The notes below the pieces were generated by a model, which was not told the DNA's origin, made no database searches, and saw only the letters and a list, made by a program, of their open reading frames with translations. A stretch of 64,000 bases of DNA, from positions 6,872-70,871 of the forward strand of contig JAXDIO010000154.1 in assembly GCA_034663965.1 (NCBI GenBank), in the 5' to 3' direction. Both the position numbers and the translations under genes were made by a program. Numbering within the stretch: the stretch's first letter is position 1; the number at the start of each line of letters is the position of its first letter. Below, piece by piece: positions 52,034 through 56,639 of the stretch. Origin of the DNA: Thermoanaerobaculia bacterium. Its GTDB lineage: Bacteria > Acidobacteriota > Thermoanaerobaculia > Gp7-AA8.

Positions 52034-53565
52034 TTCGCTCCCGTTCGTCCGTGGCAGAGATCGAGGGCGGCCAGGGGGATGCGGCGGCGATCCTGTCGCA
52101 CCTCGTCAAAGAACGTCGACACCAGCGAATCCAGGCCGAAGATGCGATGCGGTTGCGTGACCGGATCACTCGTGGCGATGGAGTTGATGAGAGCATCGGC
52201 CCCGGATGGGGTTGCGCTCGTCTGGTGCGAGCGGTCATAGCGGCTTTGGGCCGTCCACGTCACCGTGAGCGGGTTCGTGGCGCACGGCCGCTGCGGGCCG
52301 CTGCCGCAGCGCAAGGTCAGATCGAACGTCTCGTTCTCACCGCTCATGGCGTGCTTCGACGATGCGATGAACGACGTTACGGCCGACTGATCGGCGGCTG
52401 TCGGCGCGATGAAGTCGAATTCGAACGCCGGCACCTGCAGGATGCCGACACAGCGTGAAGCTCCGCGAACCCGTCGCGCCTCGAGGCTGAAGTAGCCTTC
52501 GTTCTGGCCGGGTCCACAGTCGATGGAAATGGTCCGGCCGTTCAGCGCCGCATCGAGCGTTCCGCTCATCTGTTTTTCCGCGGACTCGCTGAACCGCGTC
52601 CACTCCATCGGAGGGAGATAGCCCGGGTAGAGCTCCATCGCCGGAAACGCGGACAGCGGACCCGTGGCCTCGCGGACCGACGAGATCGCGGCAATGCCAT
52701 TCTCCTGCATGCGCTCGTGCAGCGCGGCGATGACGCGGCGGCCGAGATCATCCGAATGTGCGATGACGATCAGCAGAATGCCGCGCGGCCCCGTGTAGTC
52801 GAACATCAGGTCGCCCTCGCTGTCGCTGCGTGCATTCGAGATGGACACGTGCTGCGAGACCTCGCCGAACACTTTCTGAAGACTGGCGGTGTTGTCGAAA
52901 TCTGCCACCGCAACGGGCTTTTCGGTGAAGAAGATGCCGGCGTGCCGCACCCACAGCGGAACGATCCAGAGGCCCGGCTGCGGCGCAACCGTGGACGTCT
53001 GTTCCAGGTGCATCGCGTCGCGTAATGCGCGCGCGACGCATGCCGCGTCGACGCCGCCCGCGCACGAGCCGCTTCCCGATCCCGCCGCCGCGACACCGTC
53101 GGTGATGATGAACGTGAGATCGTAGTCGTGAGACGCGGCCACGGCTTCGTGCAGTGTCGTCCGGCCGGAGGGCTTGTAGTCGGCGGCGAGCCCGCTGAAG
53201 TTTCGCGACGCCAGAATTCCTCTGCCCGCGTCGAATTGCGCGAGCCTCAGTTCCGTGATGTTGATCGCGGAGTCGCGAATGCGGCTTACCGATTGATCCA
53301 GCCAGCGCAGGATTCCGAGCACCGAGGGGCGTACGCCAAGCATCGAACCGGAAGAGTCGAGAAGGATTTGCACGCGTGCCGGCGCAATGTCCGCGACCGC
53401 TCCGGGACAATAAAGGACTGGCTCGGCCAACGTGATGATGTCGGCCGACGGTTCGGGCGGCGGCGCTGTCGAAACGACCGCGGTCGACGGCCCCAGCGCC
53501 GACGACACGATGAGAATGATGACGATCAATACGATGACCGCGATGGCGAGCCCCGCGTATCTCAT
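52030..53565 (-). CDS. membrane-anchored von Willebrand factor A (vWA) domain protein
   Basis: The start was trimmed to MRYAGLAIAVIVLIV, a TM anchor. vWA blocks are present (VQILLDSSGSM ... GRTTLHEAV ... LTFIITDG). The start overlaps the upstream gene (ATGA). Confidence 0.7.
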   Translation of the reverse strand: MRYAGLAIAVIVLIVIILIVSSALGPSTAVVSTAPPPEPSADIITLAEPVLYCPGAVADIAPARVQILLDSSGSMLGVRPSVLGILRWLDQSVSRIRDSAINITELRLAQFDAGRGILASRNFSGLAADYKPSGRTTLHEAVAASHDYDLTFIITDGVAAAGSGSGSCAGGVDAACVARALRDAMHLEQTSTVAPQPGLWIVPLWVRHAGIFFTEKPVAVADFDNTASLQKVFGEVSQHVSISNARSDSEGDLMFDYTGPRGILLIVIAHSDDLGRRVIAALHERMQENGIAAISSVREATGPLSAFPAMELYPGYLPPMEWTRFSESAEKQMSGTLDAALNGRTISIDCGPGQNEGYFSLEARRVRGASRCVGILQVPAFEFDFIAPTAADQSAVTSFIASSKHAMSGENETFDLTLRCGSGPQRPCATNPLTVTWTAQSRYDRSHQTSATPSGADALINSIATSDPVTQPHRIFGLDSLVSTFFDEVRQDRRRIPLAALDLCHGRTGAK

Positions 53566-56500: not shown

Positions 56501-56639
56501 ATGTCTTTGGCCGCTGGTCGGGTTGCTGCTCGAGCGTCCACAGGTACGCGAGGTCCTGATGCAGAAGGTGCGGGATCGATTCAGGCAAGACGCTTTTTAC
56601 TTCCCACGAACCGCCGACGATTTCGTTATATCGCGCCAT
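53562..56639 (-). CDS. 1025-aa protein with Hsp70/actin-fold ATPase domain (DnaK-like phosphate motifs) and N-terminal Cys-cluster region
   Basis: AIDFGTTNTVIYW matches the Hsp70 phosphate-1 block (IGIDLGTTNS). FLVADMGGGTLDVALF matches the Hsp70 DLGGGTFD block. The N-terminal part carries the Cys cluster CAACG...CSNGQC. Confidence 0.7.
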   Translation of the reverse strand: MARYNEIVGGSWEVKSVLPESIPHLLHQDLAYLWTLEQQPDQRPKTWHTRIEAWRVLLRLFFLDQLSVEPEPLRRPLLDVTERFGIRNVTWLRHKSLKQVVGVLSPTVIVRPLPDFAEDDLDRWRGQMKDNDRDFLHLLFVALKTLHGKAEASSFAPRIADVLQREFTPAAASHRAPGGRDVEVPILHRVTWERNDGDTPPLTAIQLSVRSDSVTEIPPYIPSCAACGTLLLHEHDASPIDVDDKFVRITCSNGQCTNRDQQLPLSNFGIWLRNANVAVIWSPEQIPAMPDLTLPPPPIVNGSEVLFEWNWTAIGGDRFRRFLRLRFVDRRVDVVQLMSIFFPKLLVPGKFAAFSGSPIRPEWSDAMVRDQLPEVRAVDEQSSIEFRDVAIHGWPKPFSRFYKTLSIERAPQLGVGLFPDPSVVGPRWLWFRAFIDGAAGNYAVTCSSGKDVLPTLSMTEKGMPDSVTVRSFADPMTGVSYLPQRQPSDDEHGEANVSMAIDFGTTNTVIYWQPPQRQHQRRLAPRAETHGINPRQIAEHALWLADNDAWRQAESIAAFLPGPAYRAKAVDPYIVPSELWQVGHERINLVRWSATHPAGKNRPPVTHFKWDSDDVSEEGYTPTRLAYLSELVLQSLPLVMAAFEPARVTAVKIGFAFPLAFEYAARTQFRQMLDALAAQLSLLTGLSVTTGSSINESRACVNAFGSFNGETFLVADMGGGTLDVALFSYLPDGVMDSRQMGSLRYAGEGCIEALAKALRIEDPNTLRDAVAVGDAAKRYGKVEAERVVAQFATVAFEFLRVMIASYRADEARKDEPIRVVLIGNGWHLIEAFSPETRSVNPKTVYHDVYTEMVAAIGDHHLSLYDKAPLSEFPSSKHLVVAGALNNVTAQATIDELGEELVLLAKLPAGRAMTVAGKHQPWSFLVGEGVPLDVDGLDLASTSKAPLFIHLDEAPAPGSRAWQTRLENSLGAKNGQLPYPTEGELLREVRDGISGRGTPRMKRGPLQIILEMEWSKALTRPRGSVR

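Follow-up and report, generated by a model that had tools for sequence, protein, structure and literature searches.

A previously undescribed Zorya-like, FtsZl1-type envelope cassette with an Hsp70-derived subunit in Thermoanaerobaculia

In Zorya systems, ZorAB forms a peptidoglycan-anchored, proton-driven 5:2 motor, and the cytoplasmic tail of ZorA, which is about 70 nm long, signals a detected phage invasion to soluble effectors, which are products of the operon that also encodes the motor (PMC11946911). For operons that combine FtsZl1 (Pfam Tubulin_2) with von Willebrand factor A (vWA) and OmpA genes, Makarova and Koonin inferred a role in membrane remodeling in 2010 (PMC2875224). Examples in that study include Deinococcus DR_0536-0538, in which FtsZl1 lies beside MotA/TolQ/ExbB and OmpA genes, and Magnetospirillum (M. 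magneticum amb2957-2961), in which FtsZl1 lies beside three vWA genes and a gene for a 1,626-amino acid (aa) COG0443 Hsp70 (PMC2875224, Additional file 5). In work by Kaur et al. in 2020, tubulin, membrane vWA proteins, and HSP70 proteins without a peptide-binding domain were described as accessory parts of predicted conflict systems, and the tubulin and HSP70 components of DO-GTPase systems were proposed to form nucleoside triphosphate (NTP)-dependent assemblies (PMC7159879). Here, we describe a six-gene cassette of a Thermoanaerobaculia bacterium (assembly GCA_034663965.1) and compare it to these systems. The cassette is located in a 64,000-nucleotide (nt) stretch of contig JAXDIO010000154.1 (positions 6,872 to 70,871 of the forward strand). 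This whole stretch is referred to as the window, and its own numbering is used for all window coordinates below. The third gene of the cassette encodes an Hsp70-like ATPase, which was the starting point of our analysis.

In order of transcription, the cassette genes code for a small membrane protein, a tubulin-like GTPase, the Hsp70-like ATPase, an exported vWA protein, a ZorA-like protein, and a ZorB-like protein. An earlier sequence-only reading of the window had recognized the vWA neighbor of the Hsp70-like gene and had missed the six-gene cassette, with its ZorAB-like pair and its upstream tubulin-like GTPase. Open reading frames (ORFs) were compared across 20-odd loci, which were fetched by protein identity and by a pattern search, and the identical six-gene order was found in the window and in loci L001, L003, L005, L006, L008, L010, L011, L018, L023, L024, and L025. 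These cassette instances, which amount to at least 11 loci and come mostly from metagenome-assembled genomes of Acidobacteriota, were complete or contig-limited. The Hsp70-like proteins in the cassette loci were 32 to 93% identical to the window protein. In the window, the junctions of the cassette consisted of four ATGA overlaps and one 1-nt spacer, which separated the stop codon of the tubulin-like gene from the ATG of the Hsp70-like gene. The vWA gene had ATGA overlaps at both ends, and the 4-nt overlap with the Hsp70-like gene bore out the translational coupling that had been proposed for this gene pair. The cassette is a fixed, translationally coupled unit.

All six cassette proteins were annotated as hypothetical wherever a source named them, and the same label was found for the homologues of the Hsp70-like protein in every source that named them. 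No significant family match was obtained for the Hsp70-like protein or the small membrane protein, nor for the tubulin-like and vWA proteins of the window, and the system is therefore invisible to current defense-finding tools. The combination of genes was not described in the libraries or the full-text literature that we searched. We classify the cassette as a previously undescribed envelope system of the Zorya-like/FtsZl1 type with a new Hsp70-derived subunit.

The Hsp70-like ATPase gene (cassette gene 3) is an ATG-to-stop ORF of 1,025 aa at 53562..56639. The coordinates in the sequence-only reading were correct, and the strand has to be given as minus; all of the cassette features described below are located on the minus strand. 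With the single protein sequence, scans of Pfam, PADLOC, and PHROGs gave nothing usable, and NCBIfam returned HscA only (E = 0.008, 14.8 bits versus a cut-off of 743). A search of the PDB with the single sequence gave only matches with E values of 0.13 or higher, and all of these weak matches but one were to Hsp70. The curated Hsp70 thresholds of Pfam and NCBIfam were not reached, and there were no precomputed Pfam domains among the 64 full-length homologues, which were 29 to 93% identical to the window protein. A profile of 42 homologues, when compared to the PDB, matched the nucleotide-binding domains (NBDs) of Hsp70 proteins exclusively (best E = 1.5e-7). The NBD was visible only via a family profile or a structure model.

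In the profile-PDB alignment, the phosphate-1 motif fell on residues ~20 to 58 of BiP and the phosphate-2 region fell on BiP residues ~174 to 297, and the motifs were colinear in a single domain. The phosphate-1 motif, AIDFGTTNTVIYW, spans residues 500 to 512 (55104..55142; residues are numbered with the initiator Met as 1) and aligned to IGIDLGTT of BiP. The phosphate-2 motif, FLVADMGGGTLDVALF, spans residues 712 to 727 (54459..54506) and aligned to DLGGGTFDVS of BiP and DnaK. An AlphaFold2 model that was generated from the alignment of 42 homologues had a mean pLDDT of 88.9 and a pTM of 0.78. When this model was compared to the PDB with Foldseek, all of the top 50 matches were NBDs of Hsp70 proteins (DnaK, BiP, Hsc70, mortalin, and Ssb1), with E values of 5e-10 to 1.5e-8 and about 450 aligned columns. 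This match is far beyond chance. Thus, the profile and the Foldseek results confirmed the proposal that the protein carries an Hsp70/actin-fold NBD with both phosphate motifs, and both motifs were located inside one contiguous Hsp70-type domain that covers residues ~494 to 890 (53970..55160).

The residues that are expected in an Hsp70-type active site were conserved. In the 42 sequences, D502-x-G504-T505-T506-N507, E696, and D716-x-G718-G-G-T721-x-D723 were invariant or nearly so; D502, E696, D716, and D723 were invariant, and T721 was present in 41 of the 42 homologues. E696 is located in the sequence INES, which aligned to INEP of DnaK, and G823-N-G-W826 was conserved at the position of the adenosine motif. 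K609, which was also invariant across the 42 homologues, is the putative catalytic Lys and counterpart of DnaK K70, by position only. Hence, equivalents of DnaK D8, E171, D194, and T199 were conserved, as was the K70 equivalent with the qualification just given. When the family profile was aligned to individual actin-fold families with hhalign, the E values were 2.9e-6 for DnaK, 8.9e-6 for FtsA, and 1.4e-5 for MreB, and all of the alignments were around the phosphate-2 motif. Sequence comparison alone did not separate Hsp70 from MreB or FtsA, and it was the structure comparison, together with the ranking in the PDB profile search, that placed the protein with Hsp70 among the actin-fold families.

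The protein resembles the Hsp70 chaperones DnaK, BiP, and Hsc70 in the fold of its NBD and in its two phosphate motifs and adenosine motif, but it differs from them in lacking the β-sandwich of the substrate-binding domain (SBD) and the helical lid, and its N-terminal module is unique. Pfam and profile matches stopped inside the NBD, and Pfam, the PDB profile, and the AlphaFold2 model were in agreement with the earlier suggestion that there is no recognizable SBD. A scan for hydrophobic segments revealed neither a signal peptide nor a transmembrane (TM) segment. The protein is a derivative of the Hsp70 NBD without an SBD, and we predict that it is catalytically competent and cytoplasmic. Because the full catalytic set is present and a peptide-binding domain is absent, we expect it to work as a clamp or adaptor that is driven by nucleotide, and not as a foldase. 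The CnuD protein of CoCoNuT systems is a precedent for Hsp70-like domains in defense systems (PMC11090510). CnuD, however, keeps the NBD/SBD unit and has degenerate ATPase motifs, whereas the catalytic residues of the cassette ATPase are invariant. An Hsp70 that lacks the substrate domain and carries a module of about 490 aa joins a small set of Hsp70 derivatives that were recruited outside protein folding.

The family-specific N-terminal module (residues 1 to 493; 55161..56639) consists of a helical subdomain (residues ~1 to 170) and a β-rich subdomain (residues ~175 to 490), and it had no match among solved structures in the PDB. A HMMER scan with a profile of this module identified 96 proteins in 1.84 billion (1.84e9) cluster representatives. 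Because nearly all of the 96 matches were about 1,000 aa in length and the remainder were fragments, the module is restricted to the Hsp70-like architecture. The β-rich subdomain contains a Cys knuckle, C224-x2-C227...C251-x4-C256 (55872..55970), in which C224 and C251 were conserved in 42 of 42 sequences, C227 in 41, and C256 in 31. Based on this pattern, a zinc knuckle or ribbon is plausible, and the cluster may be a metal-binding site. The sequence-only reading was correct about the Cys cluster, but it placed the length of the N-terminal extension at about 450 aa instead of about 493 aa. In one 1,402-aa homologue (P0067), three tandem copies of the helical subdomain (the ...PHLLHWD.AYLWILEK... 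unit) were followed by the β-rich subdomain and the NBD. This homologue had been considered as a tubulin-Hsp70 fusion, an idea that was rejected in favor of the triplicated helical subdomain.

At the other end of the protein, an α/β extension covers residues ~891 to 1025 (53565..53969). According to the secondary structure of the model, this extension of about 135 aa contains a few strands and four helices, and it begins after the last helix of the NBD, around SSKHLVVAGAL. The C-terminal end of the family contains a conserved KGPLQxILExxW sequence, in which the G, P, L, E, and W residues are conserved. A C-terminal tail of about 250 aa had been proposed previously; this estimate was wrong because lobe II of the NBD fills about 165 aa after the second phosphate motif.

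The family of the Hsp70-like protein, with its 96 clusters, is rare and taxonomically patchy. Almost all of the named hosts belonged to the Acidobacteriota, namely, Thermoanaerobaculia, Pyrinomonadaceae, Chloracidobacterium, Bryobacterales, and Solibacteraceae, and one host of the cassette family was a metagenome-assembled genome (MAG) labeled Bacteroidetes. A Thermoanaerobaculia MAG encodes a protein with 100% identity to the tubulin-like protein of the window, and the Hsp70-like protein was 93% identical to one from another Thermoanaerobaculia MAG. A homologue with 30% identity was found on a 2.8-kb contig that was binned as Nitrososphaera sp. (L012). Every other host was bacterial, and this archaeal assignment is doubtful and likely to reflect mis-binning.

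The gene directly upstream of the Hsp70-like gene (cassette gene 2; 56641..57957) encodes a 438-aa protein that is probably a tubulin/FtsZ-like GTPase related to Tubulin_2, as suggested by matches to PF13809 and by its glycine loops. Specifically, the loops G8-G-T-G-Q12 and G154-G-T-G-G-G159 were invariant or nearly so, and 18 of 30 family members matched PF13809 (Tubulin_2) at E values of 0.01 or lower (best 1.1e-6). The only other Pfam family that members matched was PF00091 (Tubulin/FtsZ). A profile of 11 sequences matched FtsZ chains exclusively in the PDB, with E values of 0.08 to 0.8 and alignments on the T4 loop. The approximately 100 members of the family were all 425 to 456 aa in length.

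The last two genes of the cassette code for a pair of proteins that resemble ZorA and ZorB. The ZorB/MotB-like protein (gene 6; 220 aa; 49458..50120) has a TM helix with a conserved Asp/Glu residue (FVDLFS) and an OmpA-type peptidoglycan-binding domain. All seven of the family members that were compared to the PADLOC ZorB models produced matches (best 3.4e-18), and the family profile matched MotS (3e-14), PomB, and the full-length MotB-related chain 8vvn_B (8e-11) in the PDB. The ZorA-like protein (gene 5; 638 aa; 50117..52033) has three TM segments, a conserved VGIAGTLFG sequence that includes the core GIAGTLFG, and, in the window, a coiled-coil tail of about 450 aa. We take the spacing of the TM segments to be that of TolQ/ExbB. 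Homologues were 643 to 911 aa in total length, and their tails were 450 to 700 aa. Most of the members matched PADLOC ZorA models (best 1e-9), and there was a match to NCBIfam antiphage_ZorA_3 (8e-6). An hhalign comparison of the ZorA-like family to Escherichia coli TolQ and ExbB gave an E value of 0.03, with VGIAGTLFG aligned to the IGLFGTVWG motif. The ZorA-like profile matched coiled-coil proteins only in the PDB, and a search for homologues with the N-terminal profile yielded two fragments. In a close relative (L026, 14634-16390), the end of the ZorA-like tail and the N-terminal half of the ZorB-like protein were missing, and about 90 C-terminal residues of the latter remained. All of the other cassette genes were intact in this relative, and its Hsp70-like protein was 62% identical to that of the window. 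The loss could be either a deletion or an assembly artifact.

The vWA protein (gene 4; 511 aa; 52030..53565) was identified as such by a metal ion-dependent adhesion site (MIDAS) with the pattern DSSGS...T...TDG, in agreement with the sequence-only reading. In detail, the motif is D70-S-S-G-S74...T136...T155-D-G, and D70, S72, S74, T136, and D156 were invariant in 10 sequences. The family has eight conserved Cys residues. Support from Pfam was weak, as one of the 10 members matched VWA_CoxE (2e-5). The window protein begins with a signal anchor, and lipobox-like sequences (e.g., LFCSGC and LTGCG) are found at the N termini of more distant homologues. Based on the signal sequence and the Cys pattern, the vWA protein is most likely periplasmic. 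Gene 1 (57954..58562) encodes a small exported or membrane protein of about 190 aa with hydrophobic segments, which was conserved in nine loci. It has a signal-like N terminus, a conserved CxQWD sequence, and three more hydrophobic TM segments. The gene probably starts at M23 (58496), and its junction with gene 2 is one of the ATGA overlaps.

An additional membrane protein gene (58480..59991) overlaps the start of gene 1 in the window. Its product has TM segments at the N terminus, a region with weak similarity to TssL/OmpA, and a K+-channel pore at the C terminus (Pfam Ion_trans_2, 1.3e-12), and members of this family were 486 to 924 aa in length. The channel gene was located upstream of the cassette in the window, L001, L011, L023, L024, and L026, and in L010 it (14722-17046) separated the vWA gene from the ZorA-like gene. 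In L003, L006, L008, and L025, the gene was absent. The channel gene, which precedes the cassette in the subclade of the window and is missing from more distant loci, is accessory and lies outside the core of the cassette.

In comparison to Zorya, the cassette has a MotB-like subunit with an acidic TM residue and an OmpA-type peptidoglycan-binding domain, a 3-TM partner whose coiled-coil tail in the cytoplasm is very long and matches the models of ZorA, and soluble cytoplasmic partners encoded in the same operon; moreover, a second and more typical ZorAB-like pair is present in the window. In contrast to Zorya, PADLOC did not identify the soluble partners that distinguish the Zorya types (ZorC and ZorD, ZorE, or ZorF and ZorG) in the cassette, in which only the ZorA-like and ZorB-like proteins matched PADLOC models. 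A tubulin-like GTPase and an Hsp70-like ATPase are found in place of the DNA-binding proteins and nucleases. The cassette also adds the exported vWA and small membrane subunits, and its motor genes are the last in the operon. The FtsZl1 operons have in common with the cassette a Tubulin_2-like GTPase gene whose neighbors encode a vWA protein associated with the membrane and a member of the OmpA family. However, the 438-aa tubulin-like protein of the cassette has neither the extended coiled coil nor the α-helical C-terminal domain that follow the GTPase domain in the approximately 1,000-aa FtsZl1, the cassette lacks a P-loop GTPase or kinase, the full set of partners is combined in a single fixed cassette, and the Hsp70-like partner was not discussed in the FtsZl1 study (PMC2875224).

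The DO-GTPase/GAP1-N2 systems likewise include tubulin-family proteins, membrane vWA proteins, and HSP70 proteins without the peptide-binding domain. In those systems, however, the tubulin theme was described as not overlapping with the HSP70 theme, both are found in Firmicutes and Actinobacteria, and the core consists of a DO-GTPase and GAP1 with no MotAB-like motor, whereas the cassette is without a Walker-A GTPase. Pfam and NCBIfam scans revealed no AAA+ domain in the cassette, no Walker A motif was found in the cassette or neighboring proteins, and there was no P-loop match in Pfam. The DO-GTPase and MoxR readings of the cassette were rejected on the grounds that it contains no P-loop or AAA+ protein. 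A final parallel, by logic only, is with FtsA and FtsZ, in which the gene for an actin-fold ATPase adjoins that for a tubulin-fold GTPase and the products are membrane associated. The cassette differs from this pair in several respects: the structure of the ATPase best matches the Hsp70 NBD rather than FtsA, the two genes come in the opposite order, an amphipathic membrane helix was not identified, and homology to FtsA was no better than that to MreB or DnaK.

Our preferred interpretation, to which we give about an even chance of being correct, is that the cassette encodes a conflict system that resembles Zorya and is anchored in the envelope, and that its arm in the cytoplasm would be a pair of NTPases, one tubulin-like and one with an actin fold. 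We favor a role in conflict because the window contains a second ZorAB-like pair, an nSTAND3 NTPase, two CHAT proteases, and a weak TIR-like match, because a homologous cassette is located beside prophage-like genes and the flanking genes differ between distant cassette loci, and because the family is rare and patchy. The folds, motifs, export signals, gene order, and gene coupling were observed; by analogy with Zorya, we infer a sensing step, a set of partner contacts, and an outcome as follows. The envelope part would comprise the ZorB-like peptidoglycan anchor, the ZorA-like channel with its tail, the exported vWA protein, and the small membrane protein, and the cytoplasmic part would comprise the tubulin-like GTPase and the Hsp70-like ATPase. 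The proton-driven ZorAB-like motor, aided by the periplasmic vWA protein, would sense when the envelope is breached or perturbed, for example by an entering phage, and the ZorA-like tail would carry the signal into the cytoplasm. The N-terminal module of the Hsp70-like ATPase is the obvious candidate for docking to the ZorA-like tail or the tubulin-like protein. Once docked, the ATPase might go through a clamp cycle powered by ATP and thereby nucleate, tether, or remodel tubulin-like assemblies, in the manner of FtsA with FtsZ. The tubulin-like assembly would then contain the invader or shut the cell down, and in some lineages the K+-channel protein could serve as a membrane effector.

If this interpretation is correct, ZorAB-type motors would be a general signaling chassis to which very different outputs in the cytoplasm can be connected, and the output in this case would be two cytoskeletal-class NTPases in place of DNA-degrading enzymes. 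It would also provide a testable function for the long-unexplained FtsZl1/Tubulin_2-vWA-OmpA neighborhoods. A more specific version, which we consider doubtful, is that a cytoskeleton-like assembly of the tubulin-like GTPase and the Hsp70/actin-fold ATPase is itself the immune effector, which would make the cassette a fourth kind of Zorya-type immunity. Such an assembly would be triggered by the ZorAB-like motor without recruitment of a nuclease, it might confine the injected genome or obstruct the site of entry, and the vWA protein would act as the periplasmic sensor.

Several observations weighed against the proposal of a Zorya-like conflict system. Scans of Pfam, PADLOC, NCBIfam, and PHROGs revealed no recognizable nuclease, toxin, or classical effector domain in the cassette, and the Hsp70-like, tubulin-like, and vWA proteins did not match PADLOC models. 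The matches of the ZorA-like protein to ZorA models fall within its coiled-coil tail, a region of low information with which some other coiled-coil models scored too. The TM domain of this protein is too divergent for a significant match to Pfam MotA_ExbB, to which one of nine members produced a match (E = 0.11), and when the ZorA-like protein was aligned with the second ZorA-like protein of the window using hhalign, the tails alone aligned. In the case of the tubulin-like protein, the FtsZ matches in the PDB were lost when the profile was enlarged to 30 sequences, and none were found at E values of 1 or lower; one possibility is that the signal from the glycine loops was diluted. The proposed contacts among the Hsp70-like ATPase, the tubulin-like GTPase, and the ZorA-like tail are conjectural. 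Finally, the synteny between two Thermoanaerobaculia genomes that is described below is equally consistent with vertical inheritance and with a mobile defense module.

The lack of a toxin or nuclease and the synteny between related genomes would be expected if the cassette were instead a housekeeping or developmental machine for membrane remodeling, of the type proposed for FtsZl1. According to this idea, a filament and an actin-fold ATPase would be anchored to the envelope via the vWA, OmpA-like, and MotA-like proteins and would shape or pinch membranes without a role in conflict. The tubulin-like protein is in or near PF13809, the FtsZl1 family, and the published operons contain vWA, OmpA, and MotA/TolQ/ExbB genes and, in one genome, the giant COG0443 Hsp70 (PMC2875224). 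On the other hand, 96 clusters with a patchy taxonomy are unlike a core cell biology machine, and the cassette is embedded among CHAT genes, STAND genes, and a second ZorAB-like set. The close relative that lost the end of the ZorA-like tail and the N terminus of the ZorB-like protein kept the other genes, which suggests that the motor is dispensable there, and the 2010 proposal was itself inferred from genomic context only. We regard the membrane-remodeling machine as a somewhat unlikely explanation, albeit the best of the alternatives.

Myxococcus gliding depends on the AglRQS motor, MreB, MglA, and a vWA adhesin. By analogy, the cassette could encode a trans-envelope apparatus for force transduction, adhesion, or gliding, in which the proton motor pulls the exported vWA protein and the GTPase and ATPase form an inner platform. 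The export of the vWA protein with an intact MIDAS and the peptidoglycan-binding domain of the ZorB-like protein are consistent with such an apparatus, and vWA proteins tethered to the inner membrane have been proposed to act as force transducers with TolQR-like 5:2 motors (PMC12204202). However, the N terminus of the cassette vWA protein has neither the SHLS/His motor-binding motif nor the TolR-like Asp transpore helix that define the two vWA families in that work (PMC12204202). In addition, the long cytoplasmic tail of the ZorA type is a hallmark of Zorya and not of Tol, Exb, or Agl systems, and no outer-membrane or other gliding components were conserved beside the cassette. Taken with these points, a force-transducing apparatus is improbable.

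The pairing of the ATPase and vWA genes had also been read as typical of conflict systems. The conflict-like setting held up, but a chaperone/co-chaperone pair resembling MoxR-vWA is very improbable because the vWA protein is exported and the ATPase lacks a signal or TM segment, which would probably place them in different compartments. MoxR-vWA pairs are common in conflict systems (PMC7159879), and the two cassette genes are adjacent with a 4-nt overlap. However, four other genes are coupled equally tightly, no AAA+ MoxR protein is present, and the signal anchor or lipobox and the conserved Cys pairs of the vWA protein make a periplasmic location probable, whereas the ATPase has no export signal. 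An ordinary folding chaperone paralogue of the DnaK/HscA type, which is suggested by the Hsp70-like motifs and the very weak HscA match in NCBIfam, is effectively refuted by the architecture of the protein, as there is no SBD or lid, no Pfam HSP70 match, and no DnaJ or GrpE gene near the cassette, and the protein has an unrelated N-terminal module of 493 aa.

The cassette is part of an island in the window that is syntenic with the L026 locus at about 50 to 60% identity. The shared genes are those for a protease, the channel, the cassette, a CHAT protein, a sigma factor, a TPR-CHAT protein, and an nSTAND3 protein. After a 7-nt gap 3' of the ZorB-like gene, a set of genes on the minus strand (43869-49450) encodes a 471-aa CHAT protease, an ECF-type (extracytoplasmic function) sigma factor, and a 1,081-aa protein with zf-HC2 (anti-sigma), TPR, and CHAT domains. 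The CHAT/sigma/TPR-CHAT set was kept with the cassette only in L026, the closest relative. On the plus strand, a second ZorAB-like module (35693-43069) converges on the cassette. This module encodes a 235-aa protein with a weak TIR-like match in PADLOC (1.3e-5), a 413-aa MotA_ExbB/ZorA2-like protein (MotA_ExbB, 2.3e-5), a 226-aa ZorB-like protein (ZorB1, 3.8e-27), an 841-aa nSTAND3 NTPase, and two proteins of 313 aa and 425 aa without matches. It may be a further uncharacterized Zorya-like variant.

No tRNA genes were found at the borders of the island. In locus L025 (1-6871), the cassette adjoins the prophage-like genes Phage_Mu_Gp36, Phage_cement_2, and Laminin_G_3. On the other side of the window cassette, a gene on the minus strand (60271-61209) encodes a 312-aa serine-protease-like protein with the sequence GDSGS, which matched a PHROG annotated as protease (1.4e-31) and, weakly, Pfam Nal1_C. 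This gene precedes the channel gene in L026, as it does in the window. Just outside the island, a gene on the minus strand (31831-33906) encodes a 691-aa protein with six PKD repeats (PKD_4, 2.4e-106).

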